NCBI GenBank assembly: GCA_019752595.1
Contig: JAIELV010000001.1
Span: 120,486 to 184,485, forward strand
Direction of reading: 5' to 3'
Length of the DNA stretch: 64,000 bases
From: Patescibacteria group bacterium
Lineage (GTDB): Bacteria; Patescibacteriota; Minisyncoccia; Phycocordibacterales; Phycocordibacteraceae
Position numbers and translations under genes: made by a program. This document shows, piece by piece, positions 5,869 to 42,978 of the stretch. The notes under the pieces are model-generated. The model ran no database searches. It saw nothing but the letters and a program-made list of their open reading frames with translations, and was not told the DNA's origin. The stretch's first letter is position 1. The number at the start of each line of letters is the position of its first letter.

Positions 5869-5977
5869 CCGCTTGAGCGCCTGTTGCTTGCACAGGCTTT
5901 CCCGCGTTCGCATTTAAGAAAATACAAAACGCCCTAAAGAGGGCGATGTATTTTCCTTAAATGCTCCGCGGGTAGGA
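5869..5977. repeat. 107-bp inverted repeat, right copy (tRNA 3' end plus its 3' flank including a hairpin)
   Basis: Pairs with 3134..3240; contains the tRNA acceptor 3' strand plus terminator-like gccctaaagagggc. Confidence 0.85.
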
Positions 5978-6227
5978 CTCGAACCTACAACCAACTCCTT
6001 ACACTGATTCCCAGAGTTTCCTAAGGGCGTGGACTATATCACGACCGGTTCTCGGTCTTTCGGTATCTAGTCTCTACGGCGCTCGGAACGTAAAAACGTT
6101 CCGTTCCCTCGGTGTTAGCGTAGCCGAAGCGTTAGCGTTCACCGATATCCCGAAATTTTCGATACGGATTCCTCCGTAAAGCTGCCTATGCTGACAGGGA
6201 GCTGCTCTACCATTGAGCTACCGCGGA
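5964..6227 (-). tRNA. Intron-containing tRNA; mature form most consistent with tRNA-Asn(GUU), with an Asp(GUC) or Thr(UGU) register alternative
   Basis: 5' half UCCGCGGUAGCUCAAUGGUAGAGCAGCUCCCUGU and 3' half (U)AAGGAGUUGGUUGUAGGUUCGAGUCCUACCCGCGGAG form a canonical cloverleaf with a 7/5/5/5 stem pattern, U1-A72 and discriminator G, separated by ~192 nt. Confidence 0.75.
5999..6193 (-). ncRNA. Group I (IC3-like) self-splicing intron in the tRNA anticodon loop
   Basis: Contains GCCGUAGAGACUAGAUACC, matching the conserved GUAGAGACUAGA P7/J8-7 core of Azoarcus/cyanobacterial tRNA introns; also AAAUUUCGGG and CCUUAGGAAAC resemble the P5 and P9.0 regions; exon ends with U, intron ends with G in the Asn register (6002..6193). 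Confidence 0.65.
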
Positions 6228-8462: not shown

Positions 8463-9254
8463 ATGAAAATACTTCTTTGGGTTGGGGTAGCGCTCTGCCT
8501 CGCGCTTGGCGGAGTAGGTTTGTTTTTTACTTTTTCAGAAGATATCCCAGAGACGTACCAAGAACCAGTCCTCACGAATCAGCAGACACATGTAACCGCA
8601 GAAGAGCCTCAAGCAGTAATTCCAGAATCTAAAAAAAGCACAGTAACGTATACGCGGCTCAGTACCTACGTTGATTCGGTAAAAAGAAACTTGGGAGTGC
8701 TTATACGCTACGAAGCATTTCCCGTGTGCGATTCCGTTTCCACGAAAGAAGTCTTTTCCGTAGAAACAGGGGACGGGCAAACGTACCCTGCTGATTGTAA
8801 TGGGGTTGTCGAACATACCTACAAAACACGAGGAACCTATACTGCTCGTTATCTAAGAAACGGCACGTCGGTAGCCTCTGTTGCTGTGGATGTTACAAAA
8901 GCGTTGGATGCACCTCCGCAGGTTCCTAGTGTAGAACCAAAGGAAAATCCGCCAGGGTCTTTGATATATGCGGACTTTTGGAATGCCGCCTCCAAAGGCA
9001 CGACGCTTGAGAAATACGTGTGGGGAGCTTCAGGAGACGATGATTACTACGACGGCGGAGAGGGAATTGATACGCTTCAGTATTTTGGTACGCGCGCGGA
9101 ACATGAAATAGTGCGTAGCCCACTAAGCCCCGCAGGTGCGAATAGTTTTCTTCTGATTCGTAGGATACGCGACAATTCTATGGATATCGTCCTGAATATT
9201 GAGATATTCGTGTTTGCAGATCAGGTAGTGAAAGCAGAAGACCTGTTCAAATAA
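8463..9254 (+). CDS. Secreted protein with an RTX-like Ca-binding repeat
   Basis: N-terminal TM/signal anchor; GASGDDDYYDGGEGIDTLQYFG resembles hemolysin-type GGXGXD repeats. Confidence 0.45.
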   Translation: MKILLWVGVALCLALGGVGLFFTFSEDIPETYQEPVLTNQQTHVTAEEPQAVIPESKKSTVTYTRLSTYVDSVKRNLGVLIRYEAFPVCDSVSTKEVFSVETGDGQTYPADCNGVVEHTYKTRGTYTARYLRNGTSVASVAVDVTKALDAPPQVPSVEPKENPPGSLIYADFWNAASKGTTLEKYVWGASGDDDYYDGGEGIDTLQYFGTRAEHEIVRSPLSPAGANSFLLIRRIRDNSMDIVLNIEIFVFADQVVKAEDLFK

Positions 9255-9305: not shown

Positions 9306-9560
9306 CTAAGACATGTGTCCTGAGACGAGTTTCGTCATCTCGAACATGGTGACTTCCTTCTTACCAAAGAGCGGCATGAGTTTGTCATCCGCGAGGATGT
9401 TTCTCTTGTTCTTCGGGTTCTGGAGGTCGTGCTTCTTGATGTACTCCCAAATCTTCTTTACCACCTGTCCGCGAGGCAAAGGACCCTTGCCAACTACTGC
9501 TTCAAGTTCAGCAGAGAGGTTGTAGGGTTTTAATAGGGCGGGGTTTGCTTTTCGTACCAT
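9306..9560 (-). CDS. SWIB/MDM2-domain protein
   Basis: LSAELEAVVGKGPLPRGQVVKKIWEYIKKHDLQNPKNKRNILADDKLMPLFGKKEVTMFEMTKLVSGH is a near-textbook SWIB domain. Confidence 0.8.
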   Translation of the reverse strand: MVRKANPALLKPYNLSAELEAVVGKGPLPRGQVVKKIWEYIKKHDLQNPKNKRNILADDKLMPLFGKKEVTMFEMTKLVSGHMS

Positions 9561-9722: not shown

Positions 9723-10967
9723 ATGAAACACACATTTGTAGTCTCTCTAGCAATTGTTTTGTCTCTTTTTGTATCTACTAATGCCTTTGCGGACCACGAC
9801 GCAACTGGAGCTTCATCAGAGGCCCATACCACTACGTCTACGACTGGAGGCACGTCTGCATCGGGCGGAACTTCGGGTAGCGCTGCAAGCGGAAGCACGC
9901 AAACGACATCCGCAACGTCTGTGACTGTAACGGCCGTTCCAGTAAAGATGGAAGTTGAAATCGAAACTGAAAACGGCGTACAGACAACGACCGTGAAGCC
10001 TGATAGCTCATCAGCGCCTACGTGCGGGGGCAAGGAAATGCCAAAACTTGAATGTCCGTCAGGATATGCAGTTTCGTGCAATACAGCAATCAGTCAGTGG
10101 GCATGTTTGAAAAGCGCCGCTTCAGCCGATACGCGCACGGGAGTTTCAACAGGCGCAGGTGCCGCGGCAGGTGCTACATCGGTGAAATATCTTGACCAGG
10201 ACGATGATAACGACGGTGTAACCACCGTTCTTGAAGACAGTGCTGTGAAATCATCGATTTTCATCAAATTAGGTGACGTAAAGGGCGAGTCTGAAGACGA
10301 TAAGGCTGCCGCCTCTGATGTATTCATCAAATTTGGCGGCGTTGATGGAGAAAGCACAAAGGGTGCTGTCCCAACAGAAAGTCAATTTGAAATTTTGATT
10401 GACTCAAAAAAAGTGCGCGGATGGGACCCGAAGACAAAAGAAGAGGTTGTAAAGATCGCTCCGAAGTCTGCCGCAGATGTTTCCGATGAGGAAGAACTCG
10501 CACTCTTTGTTGCTGCGATTTCTGCTGACGACCCACGCATGGAACAGATTTCGTTGAACTTCACGAAGATTGAGTTCAAGTATCGTTCTGACGCAAAACT
10601 GTTCGGACTCATCCCGTCCTCTCTTCTACAAGACGTATCTCTTGAGGGTGGTGCAGTAAACTTGAAGAAGCCATGGTACTCGTTCTTGTTTAGTGGTGTC
10701 ACTGACCTCGACGACCTCGCGGCGGCTGCGCAAGCAACTAAGGACAAAGGCCACAAAGATGAGATTGAAATTCTTTCATGGAGTTTCGGTGCAAGTAATG
10801 CGGGGAGTATGTCTGCAGGCAGTGGCGGTGGAGCAGGTAAAGTGAATATCGCTGTTGGCGACGTGAACGGAGACGGCGTAGAAGATATTACACTCGCTGG
10901 ACTCGCTACCAACTTTGCAATTCTTCTTGATACTGTGAAGTCGGCTCACGAAGAAAGCGGAAAGTAG
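9723..10967 (+). CDS. Secreted Hcp-like (T6SS tube protein fold) domain protein with permuted motif order
   Basis: Sec signal peptide, S/T/G-rich linker, then FIKLGDVKGESEDDK (x2), ISLNFTKIEFKY and GHKDEIEILSWSFGASNAGSMSAGSGGGAGKVNIAVGD; compare Hcp1 FIKIGDVKGESKDKTHAEEIDVLAWSWGMSQSGSMHMGGGGGAGKVNVQDLSF and LNFAQVQVDY. Confidence 0.6.
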   Translation: MKHTFVVSLAIVLSLFVSTNAFADHDATGASSEAHTTTSTTGGTSASGGTSGSAASGSTQTTSATSVTVTAVPVKMEVEIETENGVQTTTVKPDSSSAPTCGGKEMPKLECPSGYAVSCNTAISQWACLKSAASADTRTGVSTGAGAAAGATSVKYLDQDDDNDGVTTVLEDSAVKSSIFIKLGDVKGESEDDKAAASDVFIKFGGVDGESTKGAVPTESQFEILIDSKKVRGWDPKTKEEVVKIAPKSAADVSDEEELALFVAAISADDPRMEQISLNFTKIEFKYRSDAKLFGLIPSSLLQDVSLEGGAVNLKKPWYSFLFSGVTDLDDLAAAAQATKDKGHKDEIEILSWSFGASNAGSMSAGSGGGAGKVNIAVGDVNGDGVEDITLAGLATNFAILLDTVKSAHEESGK

Positions 10968-14614: not shown

Positions 14615-16522
14615 TTAAACGATTTCGTCAGGGTCTATACTCACGACGACATTTGGTGGAAGGCTTTTCAGTTTTTCCCACAACTCTGTGTCTGGCCACG
14701 AGCTTTTTGGAAGTCGTATCACAGCCTTTGCGCTCCACTCACCTCGTGGCTCCGCTTCTGCAGGCAGTGGCCCCACGAGGTCGTACCCAGAAAATGTTTC
14801 AGAAATCAATGTACGATTTTTATCAACTGCTGGCCGTGGGCCGTATGCAGTGAGGCCGATGAATAGCGTAAACGGAGGGTAGCCGTACTGTTCGCGCTCA
14901 GCACAGTCTTTGCGGTAAAAGTCCTGCGGGTTTCCTGAGAGAAGTGTTTTCATAACCTCAGTCTCTGGTTGGCGGGTTTCAATAATTAGTTTTTCTTCAG
15001 CGTGCTCGCGTAAATAAAAGAGAATAGAAAGCGCAGTTTCGTGTGCTCTCCACGCGGGTAGGGACAGCAATGTGTCGATTGAAGCGACCACGGCAATATC
15101 CGCAGGCTCTTTGAGATAGGGGAGCATGCGTTCTGTGCCGACAAGAATTGCACCGTCAGTTGCAAAGAAAGCATCGGATATTTTCTTAGCCGTTTTATGT
15201 GTCGGCGCCGTGTCTTTGGTAAATGCACTTATTTTTGTATCGGGAAAATCTTTTTCGAGCTCTTCAACCACACGGTCGATGCCGATACCGAGAGTCACTA
15301 GATTCCATCCTCCGCAGACCGTGCACGACGTCTCTGCGGGAAGGACAGCGCCTGAACGGTGTGAAAGGAAGACGTTTCCATGTGCGGTTTTGTGCAGTGT
15401 CATCGGAAGTCCCGAGTTCGGGTCTGTAATCGGTGTTCCGCAATCGTTACAGATGGTGAGCGGGGCAATTCCACGTCGCGCGGCAAAAACAATAGCTCGA
15501 CCGCCTTTCTTTAAAATCGATCGCATTTCTGCTTTTGTTTCAGGTGTGAGCGCACTAAACATCCGTCGCTCACCACGCTTGGTGTCTTTCTGTCGCGTAT
15601 CTACCACGGAAACCATTTCTGTTCCGCCTGGACGTACTTGCGAGCGCGCCAGTTCTTCTGCTTCGTGGATGTCAACACGGTATCTGGTTTCAACACGAAG
15701 CGGGAAGTCTGCAAGAATAAGCCTGGCTCCAGAGTGTGCCGAAAGCGATTCAGCCACCTGTCGAATATCAAGATGGGGGCGCTCCCTCCCGCGGTACGCG
15801 CGCGCGGATTCACGTTCAATCACGATAGTGTCTAAATCCGCGCGCGGAATTGAAAGAATGACAGGGGTGCCAACGACCAACACGGGCTCGCGGTTGGTGA
15901 CGGCGTGATTCCATGCGCCGATTAATTTTTTCTTTGAAAGTTCTGAAGTGAACAAAATCACGCGGTTTTCAATGCCACGCTCGAGGTGTCCCGCGAGCTG
16001 CTCCGCTTCAACTATCGTTGGTGCAACGATAAAGACAGAGGCGTTTCGTGCAAACGCTTCACGTGCAAGATTTCTGTAGGTACGAATGCGCTCTTCGCGT
16101 TCGGCTTGTAACACCAAAAGGTCAGCTTTCACGCCCGTTGTTTCTTCGTTTGCTTTCGGAACGTATTCTTCTATCGACGGTAACGACGCTAGTATTTGTG
16201 AAGAGGCTAGGGCGGATACCACGATACCTTCATGCGTGCCGTGCCACCGCGCGGCGTCGTTTACCGCACGAATAAAACTCGCGCGAAACATTTTTTTCTT
16301 TGGTGTTTTTTCGGAGTCGAGCTTTTTCAATGCAAAGTCGGCGGTACGCAGGTCGTATTTTTCTTCTCGAACATCAGTGGATGCGAGTACGATGCCAGGT
16401 ATTTTCCTTCCGCGCACTATGACGTGAATCACCGTTCCTGGAGATATATGTTCACGTGAAAAGTAGGTCAGGTGGTCTTTAAAAATCCCTTTGGCAACAG
16501 GCATGACGCGGACTGAAAACAT
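14615..16522 (-). CDS. priA: Primosomal protein N' (PriA helicase)
   Basis: Helicase motifs plus zinc-binding CNDCGTPITDP...CTVCGG insertion; priA-def-fmt order. Confidence 0.85.
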   Translation of the reverse strand: MFSVRVMPVAKGIFKDHLTYFSREHISPGTVIHVIVRGRKIPGIVLASTDVREEKYDLRTADFALKKLDSEKTPKKKMFRASFIRAVNDAARWHGTHEGIVVSALASSQILASLPSIEEYVPKANEETTGVKADLLVLQAEREERIRTYRNLAREAFARNASVFIVAPTIVEAEQLAGHLERGIENRVILFTSELSKKKLIGAWNHAVTNREPVLVVGTPVILSIPRADLDTIVIERESARAYRGRERPHLDIRQVAESLSAHSGARLILADFPLRVETRYRVDIHEAEELARSQVRPGGTEMVSVVDTRQKDTKRGERRMFSALTPETKAEMRSILKKGGRAIVFAARRGIAPLTICNDCGTPITDPNSGLPMTLHKTAHGNVFLSHRSGAVLPAETSCTVCGGWNLVTLGIGIDRVVEELEKDFPDTKISAFTKDTAPTHKTAKKISDAFFATDGAILVGTERMLPYLKEPADIAVVASIDTLLSLPAWRAHETALSILFYLREHAEEKLIIETRQPETEVMKTLLSGNPQDFYRKDCAEREQYGYPPFTLFIGLTAYGPRPAVDKNRTLISETFSGYDLVGPLPAEAEPRGEWSAKAVIRLPKSSWPDTELWEKLKSLPPNVVVSIDPDEIV

Positions 16523-18074: not shown

Positions 18075-19091
18075 ATGTCATTCTTTGCGCCGAGATTGGG
18101 AATTGATTTGGGAACCACTACAACCCTCGTATTCGTTCCTGGGCGCGGAATTGTGTTGAATGAACCGTCAGTCGTCGCAGTTTCAGTCGGAGATAAAAAA
18201 ATTCTGGCAATCGGTGCAGACGCGAAAGAAATGATTGGGCGCACACCTGAGTCGATTATTGCGTATCGCCCGATGAAAGACGGCGTTATTGCAGACTACC
18301 GCGTGACTGAAGCAATGCTTCGGTACTACATACGGAAAGCATTAGGTTCGTGGAATCTTTTCAAGCCTGACGTCATTGTGTCGGTGCCTGCGGGCGTCTC
18401 ATCGACCGAGCGTCGTGCAGTTGTTGAGGCGGGAATAAAAGCGGGCGCGCGAAATGCATACGTTATTAAAGAACCAATCTTGGCCGCCATTGGCGCAGGT
18501 ATTCCGATTCATGAACCGCGCGGACACATGATTGCAGACGTGGGCGGGGGTACGATAGACGTGGCCGTTATTTCTTTGGGCGGCATCGTGGCCTCGACAA
18601 GCGTGAAATGTGCAGGGAACCGAATTGACCAAGCGATAGCCGATTACATAAAGAAGACGTATAACCTCGCTATCGGAGACAAAACCGCCGAGGATGTAAA
18701 GATTCAGATAGGCTCGGCAGTGCCCGTAGAGGAGGAACTGACTATGGCTATCAAAGGCCGCGACCTCTTGTCAGGTCTTCCGCGAACCGCCAATGTGTCG
18801 ACCAATGAAATCGTTCGTGCGATTGCGCGTGAATTGCGCGAGATGATTAAGGCAATCAGGAATGTGCTTCAGGAAACGCCACCCGAATTGGCAGCAGACA
18901 TTATCGATAAGGGCATCATTATGACTGGAGGCACTTCACAGCTTCGTCATTTTCCTGAGCTCGTGTTCAGACGGACGGGAGTGCACGCGGTTCTTGCCGA
19001 TGAAGCGCAATTTTGTGTCGCTAAAGGTACAGGTATTGCACTTGAACACCTCGAGACGTACAAGAAGACAATGACGACAAAGAGGGGTTAA
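18075..19091 (+). CDS. mreB: Rod shape-determining protein MreB (copy 1)
   Basis: GIDLGTTTTLVFVPGRGIVLNEPSVVA, DVGGGTIDVAVISLGG actin-fold motifs. Confidence 0.85.
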   Translation: MSFFAPRLGIDLGTTTTLVFVPGRGIVLNEPSVVAVSVGDKKILAIGADAKEMIGRTPESIIAYRPMKDGVIADYRVTEAMLRYYIRKALGSWNLFKPDVIVSVPAGVSSTERRAVVEAGIKAGARNAYVIKEPILAAIGAGIPIHEPRGHMIADVGGGTIDVAVISLGGIVASTSVKCAGNRIDQAIADYIKKTYNLAIGDKTAEDVKIQIGSAVPVEEELTMAIKGRDLLSGLPRTANVSTNEIVRAIARELREMIKAIRNVLQETPPELAADIIDKGIIMTGGTSQLRHFPELVFRRTGVHAVLADEAQFCVAKGTGIALEHLETYKKTMTTKRG

Positions 19092-23749: not shown

Positions 23750-25006
23750 ATGCGCCAGTCTCACTTATTCACAAAAACACGGAAAGAATCTCCAAAAGAT
23801 GAGATTTCGCAGAATGCGCAACTTCTGATTCGTGGCGGATACATCCACAAAGAAATGGCGGGTGCATACGACTTGCTTCCGCTCGGACTTCGCGTATTTG
23901 AAAAGATAAAACAAATTATTCGCGAAGAAATGAACGCGCTCGGTGGTCAGGAAGTTTCTTTTACCGCGCTTCAAGATCCTGAGTTGTGGAAAGAAACGAA
24001 TCGCTGGAAAGGAGAAGCGGTTGATGAAGTCTGGTTTAAAACAGAATTGAACGGAGGTACGCAGGTCGGCTTGGGTTTTACACATGAAGAGCCGATGACG
24101 CGCGTGATGAAAAATCATATCTCGTCATACCGCGATTTACCAAGGTACACGTATCAGTTTCAAACGAAGTTTCGAAATGAGCTTCGTGCGAAATCTGGCA
24201 TCATGCGCGGACGCGAGTTTTTGATGAAAGATTTTTACTCGTTTAATCGCTCGGATGCGGAGCTTGAGGTCTTTTACGAAGAAGCAGGTGCAGCCTATCT
24301 GAATGTGTTTCGAAGGGTCGGTATCGGAGATTTTACCTACTTAACCTTTGCCTCAGGCGGTGTGTTTTCAAAGTTCAGTCACGAGTTTCAGTGCGTCTCG
24401 ACCGCAGGCGAGGACACCATATATATAGATACGGATAAGCGCATTGCCGTGAATTATGAGGTCATGAGTGACGATATTCTCCGTGATTTAGGTATTTCTA
24501 AGGAGGCATTGGTAGAGGCGAAAGCAATTGAGGTTGGAAACATTTTTAAACTCGGCACCAGATTCTCAGAACCGCTCGGCTTAACCTTTAAAGACGAAGA
24601 CGGAGTCGATAAGCCAGTGGTCATGGGTTCGTACGGTATCGGCATTGGACGCCTCATGGGTACGATTGTTGAAGTGTTGTGCGATGAAAAGGGAATTGTG
24701 TGGCCTGAATCGGTTGCACCATTTACGATTCATTTGGTTGAACTATCGCAAGGGGATGAAAAAATTCGCGCGTATGCCGACAAACTGTATGAAGATTTAA
24801 CCGTAGCTGGCATTGAAGTTTTGTACGATGATCGCGATATGCGCGCGGGAGAAAAATTTGCCGACTCTGATTTGCTGGGTATTCCGCACCGTGTGGTTGT
24901 CGGGAAGACAACAACTGATTCTGCAATTGAGGTCGTGCGTAGGAAGAACGGGAATAAAGGGGTTGTGACGAGAGAAAAACTGCTTGCGGGAATCTATCAT
25001 GCTTAG
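23750..25006 (+). CDS. proS: Prolyl-tRNA synthetase
   Basis: Class II motifs (FRNELRAKSGIMRGREFLMKDFYSF; GSYGIGIGRL), anticodon-binding C-terminal domain; start at MRQSH. Confidence 0.85.
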   Translation: MRQSHLFTKTRKESPKDEISQNAQLLIRGGYIHKEMAGAYDLLPLGLRVFEKIKQIIREEMNALGGQEVSFTALQDPELWKETNRWKGEAVDEVWFKTELNGGTQVGLGFTHEEPMTRVMKNHISSYRDLPRYTYQFQTKFRNELRAKSGIMRGREFLMKDFYSFNRSDAELEVFYEEAGAAYLNVFRRVGIGDFTYLTFASGGVFSKFSHEFQCVSTAGEDTIYIDTDKRIAVNYEVMSDDILRDLGISKEALVEAKAIEVGNIFKLGTRFSEPLGLTFKDEDGVDKPVVMGSYGIGIGRLMGTIVEVLCDEKGIVWPESVAPFTIHLVELSQGDEKIRAYADKLYEDLTVAGIEVLYDDRDMRAGEKFADSDLLGIPHRVVVGKTTTDSAIEVVRRKNGNKGVVTREKLLAGIYHA

Positions 25007-26057
25007 AATTCCACGAAACATTGCAGAGCGCTTTTCACGCGATATCGGGATTGATCTAGGCACCGCAAATACACTTGTGTACCTGAAAGGGAAAGGAATT
25101 GTGATTACCGAACCATCGGTTGTTGCGGTGAACACAAAAACAGGTCAGGTGGTTGCCGTTGGAGCGCAGGCGAAAGACATGCTCGGAAGAACCCCTGCAC
25201 ACATCAATGCAGTACGACCGCTTGTCGAAGGTGTTATTTCTGATTTCGAAGTAACTGAAGAAATGCTTCGCTACTTAGTGCAAAAAGCACAAGGCTCACA
25301 GCCCCCGCTCGGTCCTCGTGTGGTGATTGGTGTGCCGTCAGGAATTACGAATGTTGAGATACGAGCAGTACGGGATGCTGCAAAAAATGCAGGCGCACGC
25401 GAAGTGTTGATTGTCGAGGAACCAATGGCTGCTGCAATTGGCGCGAGGCTTCCTGTGCACGAAGCAGTTGGCACCATGCTCATAGATATCGGCGGAGGCA
25501 CGACCGACATTGCGCTCATTGCGCTTGGCGGCATTGTGCGTTCAAAGAATGTGCGTGTTGCTGGCGACACGTTGAATCAGGACATTGCAAGCTATATCAG
25601 AAGTGAATTTAAAATCTTAATTGGCGACCGTACTGCGGAGGATGTGAAGATTGCCGTCGGTACTGTGGTGAAACCCATAGTGCCTCTTCAAACTACAATT
25701 CGCGGACGTGATTTGGTTACAGGACTTCCACGAGAGATCGTGATTACCGATGCTGACGTGCGGGAAGCGATTTCCAGTTCCGTTGCGTCAGTTATTGAGG
25801 CAGTAAAAGAGGTTATTGAAACCGCACCTCCTGAAGTGGTAGCAGACGTCATGCGACAAGGTGTCTACGTGACTGGTGGCGGTGCATTGCTACGCGGGCT
25901 TCCAGAGCTTTTAGCGCAGGAATTGAAGGTACCGATTCATGTGGTCGATGATCCGCTGACAACCGTGGTTCGTGGTACGGGGCTTATTTTGGAGGATGTG
26001 GAGAAATATCGCCAAGTTCTTGTTGATGATGATGATGGGTCGTTCGCAAGCTTCTAA
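24999..26057 (+). CDS. mreB: MreB paralog (copy 2), heads an mreBCD-pbp2 cluster
   Basis: GIDLGTANTLVYLKGKGIVITEPSVVA; start ATG overlaps the proS stop (ATGCTTAG). Confidence 0.8.
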   Translation: MLRIPRNIAERFSRDIGIDLGTANTLVYLKGKGIVITEPSVVAVNTKTGQVVAVGAQAKDMLGRTPAHINAVRPLVEGVISDFEVTEEMLRYLVQKAQGSQPPLGPRVVIGVPSGITNVEIRAVRDAAKNAGAREVLIVEEPMAAAIGARLPVHEAVGTMLIDIGGGTTDIALIALGGIVRSKNVRVAGDTLNQDIASYIRSEFKILIGDRTAEDVKIAVGTVVKPIVPLQTTIRGRDLVTGLPREIVITDADVREAISSSVASVIEAVKEVIETAPPEVVADVMRQGVYVTGGGALLRGLPELLAQELKVPIHVVDDPLTTVVRGTGLILEDVEKYRQVLVDDDDGSFASF

Positions 26058-29567: not shown

Positions 29568-31160
29568 ATGTTTTGGCTTGACCGTATTTATGGGCAAATA
29601 GAGAAAGCGATTCCTGAAAAATTGAAATCAGGAGAAACGCTTTTGGTGCGTGATGAAAAAACGCCTTCGGGGCGTGTACACATTGGCAATATGCGCTCCT
29701 TAGCATTTCACGCCGCAATGTGGGAGCGCTTGCGTGAAGCAGGAATTCCTGCAGATTTCAAATTTGAAATCAACGACTTTGATCCGATGGATGGTTTACC
29801 TGTATATCTTGATGAGGCTGAATATCGCCAGCACATGGGCAAGCCGTTATACAACATTCCTTCTCCAGAACCAGATGTTGCGCCGAATTTTGCCGAATAC
29901 TACGCAAAGGAATATATTGATGCAATTCATGACGCAGGGTTTACTCCAGTCTTTTATCGTTCGAGTGAATTGTACCTTGCGGGGAAGATGAATGATGCCA
30001 TTCGTATTTCTCTTGAGAAAGCAGACGTTATCAGAAAAATTTACAAAGAAATATCGGGCGCAGACCGTCCATCTGACTGGCACGCGCTTTCGGTTGTGTG
30101 TGAGAATTGCGGGAAGATAGGAACGACGAAAGTAAGTGCGTTTGACGGAGAGAAAGTGACGTATGCGTGTTATCCGACAGCAGTGAAGTGGGCAGAAGGC
30201 TGTGGACACAAAGGGCAGGTGTCTCCGTTTAATGGAAATGCAAAATTGCCATGGAAGGTTGAGTGGGCTGCAAAGTGGTTTGTGAACGGCGTTGACGTTG
30301 AAGGCGGAGGCAAGGATCACTATTCAAAAGGTGGTGCTCGTGATGTCGCACGTCATATTTCAGAAGAAGTGTTTGGATACAAAGAGCCCTTTGGTATGCA
30401 AAACGAATATTTCCTCTACGGTGGTGAAAAAATGTCTTCATCAAAAGGAAAGGGTTCATCTTCTCGTGATGTAGTAAATCTTGTACCGCAACACATCTTC
30501 AGACTTGCGCTCTACGGGAAGGATATTAATCAGCAGATTAACTTTGATCCCAACGGAGACATGATTCCTGTTCTTTTTGATCAGTACGACAAAATCGCGG
30601 AGAAATATTGGGCAGGTATTACTGACGACGATACACGTCTGTTTCTGTACACCCATACGCCAGAGAAGCGCGCACATATAGAAAAAAGATTTCTCCCGCG
30701 TTTTTCACAGGTTGCGTTTTTGGTACAGATGCCGCATTTAAATTTCGAAACTGAAATAGAACGCCTAAAGGGGGGGTCGCTTACGGATGCCGATAAAAAG
30801 GAAGCACAAGAACGCGCACACTATGCAAAACACTGGCTCAAGGTCGCAGCGGACGAAGAGTTTGTATTTACGCTTGCTGAGGACGCAGTGCCCGAAGCAG
30901 TGAAAGCTTTGTCAGATGACCAGAAAAATGCCCTAAAAGAGGTCCTGGCGTACGTGGAGGCCAACCCAGTGCTCGAGGGGCAGGCGCTCCATACGGAGCT
31001 TCATGAGATACGCAAACGCCTGAATATCGACGCGAAGGCCTTTTTCGGGGCAATATATCTGTCGTTTTTAGGTAAAGACCACGGACCAAAAGTTGGGTGG
31101 TTTTTGAGCGTCCTGGATCGCAACTTCCTTATCAGTCGTCTTAAAGAAACAACTGTTTGA
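29568..31160 (+). CDS. lysK: Lysyl-tRNA synthetase, class I
   Basis: HIGN (HIGH) motif in SGRVHIGNMRS and KMSSSKGKG (KMSKS); ~530 aa, typical of archaeal-type LysRS-I. Confidence 0.85.
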   Translation: MFWLDRIYGQIEKAIPEKLKSGETLLVRDEKTPSGRVHIGNMRSLAFHAAMWERLREAGIPADFKFEINDFDPMDGLPVYLDEAEYRQHMGKPLYNIPSPEPDVAPNFAEYYAKEYIDAIHDAGFTPVFYRSSELYLAGKMNDAIRISLEKADVIRKIYKEISGADRPSDWHALSVVCENCGKIGTTKVSAFDGEKVTYACYPTAVKWAEGCGHKGQVSPFNGNAKLPWKVEWAAKWFVNGVDVEGGGKDHYSKGGARDVARHISEEVFGYKEPFGMQNEYFLYGGEKMSSSKGKGSSSRDVVNLVPQHIFRLALYGKDINQQINFDPNGDMIPVLFDQYDKIAEKYWAGITDDDTRLFLYTHTPEKRAHIEKRFLPRFSQVAFLVQMPHLNFETEIERLKGGSLTDADKKEAQERAHYAKHWLKVAADEEFVFTLAEDAVPEAVKALSDDQKNALKEVLAYVEANPVLEGQALHTELHEIRKRLNIDAKAFFGAIYLSFLGKDHGPKVGWFLSVLDRNFLISRLKETTV

Positions 31161-41502: not shown

Positions 41503-42978
41503 TTAATGCATCAACCGTTCTACGGGTGCAAAGTCGTCCGTCAATACTATGTTGCTTTCAGGAAGCGTTGCCTGTACGAGCCCGACCTCAGGAAAACGTT
41601 GAGAGACAATAAATTTCGAAAGTTCTCCACTGTACGAGGCTACAAAAATAAGATTTTGATTTACTTCAGATTTCTCTGACATCACGTAGAGCGAGACATG
41701 CGGGAATACAGTTTTCAGGGTTTTAAAAAGAGCAGCCGAGAAATCTGAGTATTCGCCCGCGTATGCGCCGTGTGCATTTATCACCAAGTGTGACCCACTA
41801 TGCATATTCTCTGCGACACTTTCAAACATTTCTTTGGTAGTCAGGTGAACAGGAATACCTTTCGAGGTGCCGAATGTATCCATAAACACGATGTCGTACG
41901 CGTCGTGTTTTCTTTTTAGGAAAATTCGTGCATCTTGATGCGTTATTGAAAGCGTGGGGAACTTTGAAGAATCAAAACTGAAATACTTTTGAGCTATTGC
42001 CGTCATACCTGGGTCAATCTCCGCAACATCTGCCGTTATTTTAGGGAAAAGCCTTAACAGGTATCGAGGGTAAGAATAGTTGCATCCTCCAAGAAAAAGA
42101 ACGCGAGCAGTTTCTGCAGGATTGACAACTTCGCGCACCATTTCAAATGCTTTCAGGTAAGGAAACACGAGAACCTCTTCATTCGCAGTGCCGTCTTCCT
42201 GTATTTCCATCGCGCATTGCGTGCCAAAAGGGTCGGTCGAAAGGGTGCGAACTTCATCAAAACGTTCCAGGCGATCTATTAAAACGCGGCTATACGCTGT
42301 TGAAATATCTGCTTCGGTCATACTTGCTCGCGTGGGAAGCGCGTTGAGGAAAAAGGCCAGCGCCACCACCACACAAAGGATGACCGCATGAACTACCGCA
42401 TTTTTGCGCAAAAAAAGAAATCCAAGAAAGAGAAGTAGAACTGCAACACCGAGAAGAATGTAGCTGACACCAAAATACGAAAGTAAAAATGCACTTGTCA
42501 GAACTGCGCCTACGATTGAGCCAGCTGTGCCTACTGCATACAGCGTGCCCGTGGCACTCCCTGCGTTTTCAACATTCCTTATTAAATTTCGAACCAGTAT
42601 CGGCGAAACAGCAGCGAGTATGAAAACAGTAGGCATAAAGAGGACTGTGCCAACCAAAATCGCTCCCCATGTTTCTGAAAGCTCTGTGACCGCAAAGAAC
42701 GTAGGCACGGCGTCGCGCACACTCCATGCAATCAGTGCCGCAAGCCCAGCGCCAAAAATGAAACGCCCCAGAGTAGTTTCAGAAGCGTTTTTGTCGGCAA
42801 TTCTCCCACCCCAGTGATACCCCAGCGCCATTCCGAGAAGTACCACTGAAATCGTGCCTGCCCATACGCCAACCGCGGTGCCCAAGTACGGAGCCAGAAG
42901 TCTGCCTCCCGCAATTTCAAAAATTAAAATAGCCGCGTTTGTGATAAACGATACCGCGTATACAACGGCGGTGTTCAT
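41503..42978 (-). CDS. Membrane-anchored spermidine-synthase-like (aminopropyltransferase fold) protein
   Basis: ~200-aa polytopic N-terminal domain, then LFLGGCNYSY...IVFMDTF...class I MTase/SpeE-like C-terminal domain. Confidence 0.6.
   Translation of the reverse strand: MNTAVVYAVSFITNAAILIFEIAGGRLLAPYLGTAVGVWAGTISVVLLGMALGYHWGGRIADKNASETTLGRFIFGAGLAALIAWSVRDAVPTFFAVTELSETWGAILVGTVLFMPTVFILAAVSPILVRNLIRNVENAGSATGTLYAVGTAGSIVGAVLTSAFLLSYFGVSYILLGVAVLLLFLGFLFLRKNAVVHAVILCVVVALAFFLNALPTRASMTEADISTAYSRVLIDRLERFDEVRTLSTDPFGTQCAMEIQEDGTANEEVLVFPYLKAFEMVREVVNPAETARVLFLGGCNYSYPRYLLRLFPKITADVAEIDPGMTAIAQKYFSFDSSKFPTLSITHQDARIFLKRKHDAYDIVFMDTFGTSKGIPVHLTTKEMFESVAENMHSGSHLVINAHGAYAGEYSDFSAALFKTLKTVFPHVSLYVMSEKSEVNQNLIFVASYSGELSKFIVSQRFPEVGLVQATLPESNIVLTDDFAPVERLMH

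Follow-up and report, generated by a model that had tools for sequence, protein, structure and literature searches.

In the type VI secretion system (T6SS), Hcp (TssD) forms the tube and VgrG the spike, and 'evolved' Hcps (Hcp-ET), which join a complete, collinear Hcp domain to a C-terminal toxin, are fired by the same system. Fibres assembled by donor-strand exchange, such as those of Bacillus TasA and the chaperone-usher pilins, use an exported, folded subunit with a spare N-terminal beta-strand that completes the sheet of its neighbour. A large part of bacterial diversity belongs to the Patescibacteria, or Candidate Phyla Radiation (CPR). These bacteria live attached to other cells, and a role is known for very few of their surface proteins. 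The subject here is one gene (9723..10967, plus strand) in a 64,000-nucleotide stretch of DNA from a Patescibacteria group bacterium (NCBI GenBank assembly GCA_019752595.1, contig JAIELV010000001.1, positions 120,486 to 184,485 of the forward strand), hereafter the window, whose own numbering is used for coordinates. The gene belongs to a large, unnamed family in which strand modules derived from Hcp are mounted on a scaffold that is not Hcp, behind a Sec-type signal peptide, and its product is neither an Hcp barrel nor a circular permutant of Hcp.

The open reading frame (ORF) is complete, encoding 414 amino acids (aa) followed by a stop codon from the first ATG of its frame, and the protein aligns over its full length with the homologues P0001-P0003 (412, 407, and 426 aa; P and L numbers are our labels for relatives). 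A first-pass annotation of the locus had described a secreted, circularly permuted Hcp-like domain and had quoted a set of Hcp motifs, all of which we located: FIKLGDVKGES (aa 180-190), LNFTKIEFKY (aa 278-287), HKDEIEILSWSFG (aa 344-356), and GGGAGKVN (aa 368-375). The duplication reported for the first of these exists, in the form of a second copy that has diverged (FIKFGGVDGES, aa 201-211). Four stretches of the protein correspond to parts of Hcp:

10254..10301 (+), Hcp strand-1 module, copy 1, SIFIKLGDVKGESEDD (aa 178-193; Hcp1 residues 3-21; positions 4-21 of a custom Hcp model, 12.4 bits)
10317..10406 (+), Hcp strand-1 module, copy 2, with a short strand-2-like piece, DVFIKFGGVDGES...QFEILIDS (aa 199-228)
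10527..10598 (+), Hcp late-strand-like segment inside the core domain, DDPRMEQISLNFTKIEFKYRSDAK (aa 269-292; T6SS_HCP positions 104-129, 12.4 bits)
10737..10850 (+), Hcp hairpin of strand 2, extended loop and strand 3, TKDKGHKDEIEILSWSFGASNAGSMSAGSGGGAGKVNI (aa 339-376; custom Hcp model, 47.3 bits)

The comparison with PF05638 that the first-pass annotation had proposed yields an above-cutoff match (E 2e-8, 35 bits; curated cutoff of T6SS_HCP 23.5 bits), limited to aa 340-376 and to positions 12-50 of the 129 in the profile. Among PDB sequences the best match is Hcp1 of Pseudomonas aeruginosa (1Y12, PA0085; E 1.3e-9) over its residues 19-56, accompanied by weaker pieces that place aa 174-192 on Hcp1 3-21 and aa 267-288 on Hcp1 119-140; over the 36 residues of aa 341-376, identity with Hcp1 of many Pseudomonas species reaches 69%. 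A custom hidden Markov model (HMM), built from 65 genuine Hcp genes of T6SS loci, maps aa 178-195 to positions 4-21, aa 197-213 to 2-18, aa 267-290 to 116-139, and aa 339-376 to 16-53, and profile-profile comparison of the three Hcp-like regions gives P values of 3.6e-8, 2.9e-6, and 1.2e-4. Taken alone against Pfam T6SS_HCP, aa 336-414 score 29.6 bits and the core 12.4 bits (profile 104-129); when the pieces are artificially spliced into the order of Hcp, the score climbs from 29.6 to 40.6 bits with addition of the strand-1 piece to the strand-2 piece, and then to 51.7 bits. By profile alignment (hhalign), aa 196-228 correspond to Hcp positions 1-29 (P 2e-6, probability 89%) and the late-strand segment to positions 118-141 (P 4e-5 to 1e-4). 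With the custom HMM, the three segment types are found in 68, 61 (the late-strand segment), and 42 of the 162 family members, against 0-1 matches once the family sequences are shuffled or reversed. These controls, together with the Pfam and PDB scores, rule out low-complexity composition as the source of the motif matches.

Conservation within the close subfamily (the window protein and P0001-P0014) follows the same parts of the chain. The core is 69% conserved, strand 2 is 67% conserved, and the segment comprising strand 3 and an adjoining FG-GAP-like loop 82%, against 35-49% in the linkers, from which we conclude that the modules are under constraint and are not decaying relics. Copy 1 of strand 1 is 71% conserved; copy 2 comes and goes among orthologues (31% identity, 39% gaps). 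The Hcp hairpin, 61-82% conserved in the subfamily, lies between the core and the C-terminal helix, in a slot of variable content; core and helix are two of the elements around which the family is organized:

9723..9791 (+), Sec-type signal peptide, MKHTFVVSLAIVLSLFVSTNAFA followed by DH (aa 1-23; cleavage motif NAFA before DH)
10386..10697 (+), alpha/beta core domain (aa 222-325; blocks with predicted local distance difference test (pLDDT) values mostly of 89-96)
10647..10697 (+), degenerate core motif, GGAVNLKKPWYSFLFSG (aa 309-325; family form GRVKVKFPWYxFL)
10887..10964 (+), C-terminal helix, ITLAGLATNFAILLDTVKSAHEESGK (aa 389-414; modelled helix aa 391-413, pLDDT 78-93)

Each of the 163 sequences examined contains the core, although the profile used derives from these very sequences. 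The core consensus reads ...LALFxAA..D..iE.ISLNFxKIxxKY...KLFGxIP...RVKVKxPWYxFL; I283, G295, P317, W318, F321, and L322 are invariant, and no model for the core was found in Pfam or NCBIfam. Throughout the family, a signal peptide is followed by flexible linkers with short modules, the core, the variable slot, and a C-terminal helix ending ...LSNVLKTKHDTAKNSIGNIR, of which the terminal helix of the window protein is a diverged counterpart by family alignment; core and terminal helix behind a signal peptide place the window protein in the family. The modules, of 12-40 residues, sit in the linkers before the core and in the slot between core and last helix. A profile search of 1.84 billion representatives recovered 57 relatives at E<=1e-30; at E<=1e-10 the number rises to 684, among which there may be some true Hcps. 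The best 150 representatives score at least 92 bits and are 108-1272 aa long, mostly 240-460 aa. Labelled members with the full architecture are nearly always CPR (Saccharibacteria, Peribacterales, Paceibacterota, Buchananbacteria, Giovannonibacteria, and Minisyncoccia). The only other label among them belongs to L010, a 5.6-kb contig binned as Gammaproteobacteria that may be misbinned, and no relatives were found on viral contigs.

Export of the window protein, as the first-pass annotation had held, is indicated by the layout of its N-terminus: MKH, TFVVSLAIVLSLFV, and STNAFA before DH form a basic n-region, a hydrophobic h-region, and an AxA cleavage site, a signal peptide that we called by eye. 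The N-terminal signal pattern is kept in homologues, and 143 of 163 family members appear signal-like in a crude test. The window protein has no lipobox, sortase motif, or C-terminal membrane anchor.

Across the family, the pieces of Hcp behave as independent modules that differ in number and position. A strand-1 module, FLKIDGVKGES, stands directly after the signal peptide in 31 members, and other modules correspond to strand 2 (HKxWIEVxSWSWG) and to the loop with strand 3. Of the 41 instances of the module KGNVEYxWKVEEGE, 40 scored, and 39 of these fall on the last Hcp strand. The strand-1, strand-2, and KGNVEYxWKVEEGE modules vary among members in copy number and place, the commonest order being strand 1, late strand, strand 2. 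Pfam T6SS_HCP was detected in 56 of 150 members scanned; in P0071 it is the middle of Hcp that is matched (profile 55-85, 29.6 bits).

The same Pfam scan detected Phage_base_V in four members, Phage_GPD and Gp5_trimer_C in one each, and T3SS_needle_F in two. Relatives also carry modules derived from VgrG and tails with a fainter resemblance to the needle of the type III secretion system (T3SS). We used a custom HMM of 38 real VgrG genes for the former. EGDPDRPIITG occurs in 14-16 members and in P0116 equals the VgrG consensus at 11 of 11 residues; further VgrG motifs in members are DENSSIWMRVSQ, VQYNESDFDFLQR, and GEEIHPDEFGRVKVKFPWW, the last being the core motif of the family, and none of these motifs appears in shuffled family sequences. 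They are arranged in scrambled order (EGDPDRPIITG, DENSSxWxRVSQ, VQYNESDFDF, GRVKVKFPW), and the slot before the last helix may carry LPEVDDEVLVGFExGDP, which resembles VgrG PRIGQEVIVSFLEGDP. P0031 exceeds the 23.8-bit cutoff of Phage_base_V (PF04717) with 32 bits, and P0116 reaches 22.3 bits. In relatives, the core motif GRVKVKFPWYxFL resembles the first strand of the oligonucleotide/oligosaccharide-binding (OB) fold of VgrG, as in P0149, where GEEIHPDEFGRVKVKFPWW aligns with GEEIWTDQYGRVKVHFYW at 17.5 bits; the window protein itself matches neither Phage_base_V nor the custom VgrG HMM, and has only the degenerate GGAVNLKKPWYSFL.

Similarity to the needle is concentrated in the tails of some members. 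The best Pfam E value for T3SS_needle_F is 3.2e-6, in two members, and P0093, P0104, and P0030 score 14-22 bits, below the cutoff of 29.4 bits. The tail of P0104 aligns with positions 8-71 of the 71 in the profile (21.7 bits), and that of P0093 with positions 17-71 of 71. The best PDB match of a tail profile is a T3SS needle-complex chain (E 0.05). The window protein, whose terminal helix has diverged, has no match to the needle profile (PF09392). We treat the needle link, the weaker of the two, as a lead only.

Two sets of relatives and modules may be recorded here in their own right. P0133, a protein of 1272 aa from a Logan assembly, joins a planctomycete-type N-terminus to many tandem Hcp strand motifs; its repeats contain the middle strands KATLTVRKQG...YYVVTLSDLLVSS (44.7 bits, Hcp 66-118), a repeated RPMESLSLNFTKVEMKY, and GGGAGKV. 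L081, from a metagenome-assembled genome of Planctomycetia, is a multi-repeat relative of different architecture and is probably of the same kind. Repeat arrays of this type are a different use of Hcp pieces, outside CPR. Separately, several recurrent modules match no known protein (KGGTEDINIGVGE, NVTFNPLATGG, TPDFSILLGGG or SNFAILL, and ENWDFG); they come from P0016, P0019, P0022, L010 (2285-3565), P0043, P0047, and P0048.

Structure prediction supports a scaffold distinct from that of Hcp. A first AlphaFold model of the whole protein, built with 21 sequences, was too shallow for a fold search (pLDDT 53). Modelling of aa 165-414 with 150 family sequences gave a pLDDT of 78.5 and a predicted template modelling score of 0.74, with 135 residues at a pLDDT of at least 90. 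The predicted structure is alpha/beta, with six helices and eight strands, and runs from a strand at aa 179-183 and another at aa 222-227 through three helices, four strands within aa 273-315, two further helices, and the hairpin, to the C-terminal helix at aa 391-413. The first of these strands is copy 1 of the strand-1 module, and the block of 10 residues around it averages a pLDDT of 90. Copy 2 has no placement in the model (pLDDT below 50), and the strands of the Hcp hairpin, aa 348-354 and 372-378, are poorly placed (pLDDT 39-55). Foldseek found nothing significant against the PDB (best E 0.86), with no Hcp among the matches listed, nor against viral models (best E 0.26).

These findings are tentatively brought together by a reading in which the protein works outside the cell and independently of T6SS, by self-association or binding, with its strands serving for beta-strand complementation; we consider this possible, the likeliest of the readings set out here, and put it forward as a working proposal. 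An edge strand of the core would take the place of the neighbour with which each module pairs in the parent fold. The modules presumably match those strands that adjoin the core-retained strands in Hcp and in the OB fold of VgrG. One copy of strand 1 would be docked on the core, as modelled, leaving the surplus copy and the Hcp hairpin free. The free modules might then be donated to a neighbouring subunit, so that a polymer or coat would form outside the cell, much as fibres form by donor-strand exchange, or might alternatively bind an outside partner; T6SS would play no part in either case. Complementation within or between chains is the most economical mechanism that we can offer, its mechanistic part being weakly supported, by the position of strand 179-183 in a block of pLDDT 90, by the low pLDDT (below 55) of copy 2 and the hairpin, and by the placement of a strand-1 module right after the signal peptide in 31 members. 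If self-assembly by strand exchange proves to be correct, it would represent a new type of extracellular polymer, made of recycled tail-tube parts.

Several points weigh against this proposal. The docking of the strand-1 module comes from a model of a single chain, in which its pairing with any particular core strand is conjectural, and the low pLDDT of the free modules may be plain disorder. The repertoire of modules varies so greatly among members that binding of diverse outside partners is no worse an explanation than a fixed quaternary structure, and the neighbourhoods of distant members share no partner genes. It is the relatives, rather than the window protein, that carry the modules resembling VgrG and the needle, the similarity to the needle lies below the curated Pfam cutoff in all members with scores, and the signal peptide was judged by eye.

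The main rival to complementation is mimicry, in which the exported modules, as copies of the best-conserved assembly strands and helices of the T6SS tube, the VgrG/gp5 spike of T6SS or phage baseplates, and possibly the T3SS needle of other bacteria, would act as decoys that latch onto, cap, or poison such machines in hosts, competitors, or phages; in a variant of this idea, the machines would serve the epibiotic cell as attachment points. Mimicry would explain why motifs of different machines share one scaffold, and it is consistent with modules that are near-identical to the hallmark motifs of those unrelated machines (69% over 36 aa of Hcp1, 11 of 11 residues in P0116, and DENSSIWMRVSQ), with the multivalent arrays of modules in flexible linkers of an exported protein, and with the recurrence of needle-like tails, including the match to the needle-complex chain at E 0.05. 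The restriction of named full-architecture members to CPR, save L010, and the lack of T6SS genes in the window are also in keeping with it. However, Hcp tubes assemble in the cytoplasm of the attacker, beyond the reach of a protein exported by Sec, and the copied strands are presumably for the most part buried core strands of the Hcp and OB folds rather than exposed epitopes, which counts against mimicry. The apparent closeness of the modules to hallmark motifs may further reflect a detection bias, as only fragments with conserved motifs are recognizable. On balance we regard mimicry as unlikely. Its broadest form, that Patescibacteria widely encode Sec-exported motif mosaics, in which a constant scaffold displays short mimics of the best-conserved assembly elements of other bacteria's injection machines (Hcp, VgrG/gp5, possibly the needle) so as to neutralize or cap them or to grip them in epibiotic life, with the window protein as an Hcp-rich variant, we rate as slightly more doubtful still. 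If mimicry is real, it would amount to a protein-level countermeasure, or a grappling device, against injection machines.

A second alternative, which we judge as unlikely as mimicry, is that of an ordinary extracellular adhesin or calcium-binding surface protein, in which the Hcp strands would be leftovers of an ancient tube-protein ancestor and have no particular function themselves. The features that bear on it lie mostly outside the Hcp modules:

9792..9938 (+), low-complexity linker rich in T, S, A, and G (aa 24-72; pLDDT below 50)
10023..10106 (+), four-cysteine mini-domain (aa 101-128; C101, C111, C119, and C128)
10188..10241 (+), acidic DxDxDG-like loop, YLDQDDDNDGVTTVLEDS (aa 156-173; 61% conserved)
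10851..10886 (+), FG-GAP-like acidic loop, AVGDVNGDGVED (aa 377-388; Pfam FG-GAP and FG-GAP_3 sub-threshold, E 0.001-0.04)

In its mature form the protein is acidic (isoelectric point 4.5). As the first-pass annotation had noted, the signal peptide leads into a linker in which T, S, A, and G predominate (50 of the 77 residues of aa 24-100), and within it aa 24-72 are the least conserved region of the close subfamily (35% identity, 37% gaps). The four-cysteine mini-domain, 67% conserved in that subfamily and predicted to form beta-hairpins (pLDDT of about 75 in the shallow whole-protein model, from which the linker value also comes), probably holds two disulfides, which would fit an extracellular location. 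The DxDxDG-like loop is, by its sequence, a possible Ca2+ site, and the module GVNIAVGDVNGDG of the FG-GAP-like loop is found again in other family members. An adhesin would account for the signal peptide, the cysteine-rich mini-domain, both acidic loops, the PKD inserts that Pfam detects in 12 of the 150 relatives scanned, and a stand-alone gene with no operon partners, and descent from a tube protein would fit the weak recognition of all 65 true Hcps by the core profile (9-13 bits for the best five). Leftovers should decay, however, yet outside the core no parts are better conserved than the modules; moreover, these are duplicated and relocated among members, and the presence of VgrG motifs in the same scaffold is left unexplained.

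The first-pass annotation's own proposal, a circularly permuted Hcp beta-barrel that forms surface rings or tubes without T6SS, fares considerably worse, and we consider it improbable. Its premises are partly sound. The hallmark motifs of Hcp strands 1, 2, and 3 are present, three Hcp segments are truly there, in a linear order that does differ from that of Hcp, and the number of strands in the model, eight, is close to that of Hcp. The poor placement of the strand 2-3 hairpin in a monomer model is also compatible with a barrel, as in tail-tube-like proteins this hairpin orders only on assembly. Yet the order of segments, strand 1, strand 1', late strand, and strands 2-3 (HMM positions 4-21, 2-18, 116-139, and 16-53), is no cyclic rotation of Hcp and includes a duplication, and Hcp positions 55-113, which run from the last part of strand 3 through the helix to strands 4-5, have no match in the window protein. 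A collinear match to most of the Hcp profile is likewise lacking, the pieces that remain (1-11 and 104-129) lying elsewhere and out of order. The model contains six helices, and the structural search with it gave no similarity to the Hcp beta-barrel, an outcome that the first-pass annotation had itself named as refuting a permutation. Most family members, furthermore, are without the hairpin or have other modules where it would be.

In the course of this comparison, two candidate resemblances were set aside. A degenerate but complete and collinear Hcp in aa 196-325 (strand 1, strand 2, helix, late strand, last strand) was supported only for Hcp positions 1-29 and 118-141; neither the helices nor the likeness of an 'EGGAV' stretch to the last Hcp strand was significant. 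L058, which had appeared to be a precedent for the order late strand then strands 2-3, proved to be a TssC gene with an ordinary Hcp gene behind it, which tblastn had joined.

That the gene is a true, mis-called Hcp gene of a T6SS, or its decaying remnant, has in its favour the names given by GenBank (MBY0538940.1) and JGI (two relatives), but is very improbable, since the named model starts at Met273 while homologues align over 414 aa, only 39 of 129 Pfam positions are matched, the signal peptide, synteny, and conservation pattern argue for a functional and different protein, and no T6SS genes lie in the 64 kb. The GenBank entry, 'type VI secretion system tube protein Hcp' (142 aa; window 10539-10967), is 100% identical to aa 273-414 and begins at that internal methionine; since the full ORF is covered in alignments with homologues of 378-426 aa, we consider this gene model truncated. 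Automated pipelines name such genes after the T6SS tube protein, by which CPR genomes would be mistaken for capable of T6SS.

The surroundings of the gene are those of a housekeeping region. No T6SS component is encoded among the approximately 40 annotated ORFs of the 64-kb window, which bears out the first-pass annotation in this respect, as does the origin of the DNA in a small-genome bacterium, one of the Patescibacteria (CPR). Nor does the window contain a second Hcp-like ORF or paralogue. Neighbours include genes for a SWIB-domain protein, a HAD hydrolase, a PEBP-family protein, formyltransferase, deformylase, MurA, two copies of MreB, penicillin-binding proteins, class I lysyl-tRNA synthetase (LysRS), DnaB, and RecR, and the gene order recurs in relatives at approximately 78% nucleotide identity. 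A scan for promoters and terminators detected nothing above chance.

Other observations in the window are recorded for completeness. Upstream of the gene, at 8463-9254 (+), lies an ORF of 263 aa with a hydrophobic N-terminus, no Pfam match, and a GGxGxD-like stretch, YDGGEGIDTLQYFG, which is kept at the same position in L001 and L002 (260 aa). Adjoining the gene at 9306-9560 (-), in divergent orientation, is a SWIB/MDM2-domain protein of 84 aa (Pfam E 2e-30). All close relatives have it at this place, and its domain is an uncommon one for bacteria. Two full-length MreB paralogues are encoded within 7 kb (18075-19091 and 24984-26057, both +), near two penicillin-binding transpeptidases, MraW, and a Mur ligase, which together make a large set of shape and wall genes for a genome of approximately 0.83 Mb. 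Large ORFs without a Pfam match are found at 14615-16522 (-; 635 aa) and 41503-42978 (-; 491 aa), and the former is syntenic in L001, L003, and L005 (635-639 aa). The LysRS gene at 29568-31160 (+; Pfam tRNA-synt_1f, E 1e-77) encodes the class I enzyme, the less common form in bacteria. Finally, a tRNA gene at about 5957-6227 (-) seems to be interrupted within the anticodon loop by a group-I-like intron of approximately 200 nucleotides. The exon halves, TCCGCGGTAGCTCAATGGTAGAGCAGCTCC... and ...GGAGTTGGTTGTAGGTTCGAGTCCTACCCGCGGA, are recognized as a tRNA by ARAGORN when joined, and the unspliced DNA is not. The putative intron matches Rfam RF00028 over the full model at 28 bits (E 4e-5; gathering score 50), the 268-bp stretch is 95-99% identical in relatives with flanks at approximately 78%, and the anticodon would be Thr-UGU if splicing occurs after U33.

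A search of the literature on Hcp and VgrG in Patescibacteria, CPR, and Saccharibacteria, and on circular permutation of Hcp, found nothing relevant. Lacking a Pfam or NCBIfam model for its core, a structural neighbour, and a paper, the family is judged to stand outside known kinds; its parts are nonetheless recognizably borrowed from Hcp and VgrG, and databases leave it unnamed or call it Hcp. Its variable parts clearly derive from signature strands of the T6SS tube and spike, in organisms that give no sign of possessing those machines.

Among known systems, Hcp1/TssD (PF05638, 1Y12) shares with the window protein FIKxGDxKGES, HKDEIxxLSWSxG...GGGAGKVN, and a late-strand-like E.xSLNFxKIxxxY. 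Unlike Hcp1, it is 414 aa long (Hcp approximately 160), bears a Sec signal, has its segments out of order and duplicated, lacks the helix and strands 4-5, is predicted to be alpha/beta, and resides in no T6SS neighbourhood, in contrast to L058 with its TssC gene ahead of Hcp. With VgrG and gp5-gp27 (PF04717, PF05954), relatives share GRVKVxFxW, DENSSxWxRVSQ, P.[IV].DEVLVxFExGDP, EGDPDRPIITG, and VQYxESDFxF, as isolated and scrambled modules of 12-50 aa in proteins of 250-440 aa, whereas VgrG is a trimeric spike of 650 aa. The C-terminal 55-65 residues of some members align with most of the profile of the T3SS needle (MxiH/PrgI/YscF; PF09392), in a layout of helix, variable tip, and helix ending ...SNxLKxKHDTxxNxIxNxR, but here a Sec signal and a large N-terminal domain precede the tail, and the recorded scores are sub-cutoff. 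Donor-strand-exchange fibres bear comparison in mechanism only, as exported subunits with a folded core and a spare N-terminal beta-strand, here on a flexible linker, that could complete a neighbouring sheet; there is no kinship in sequence or fold, and there are no chaperone or usher genes. As in Hcp-ET, Hcp is combined with other domains in one chain; in the protein described here, however, Hcp is fragmented, and the chain carries a Sec signal.

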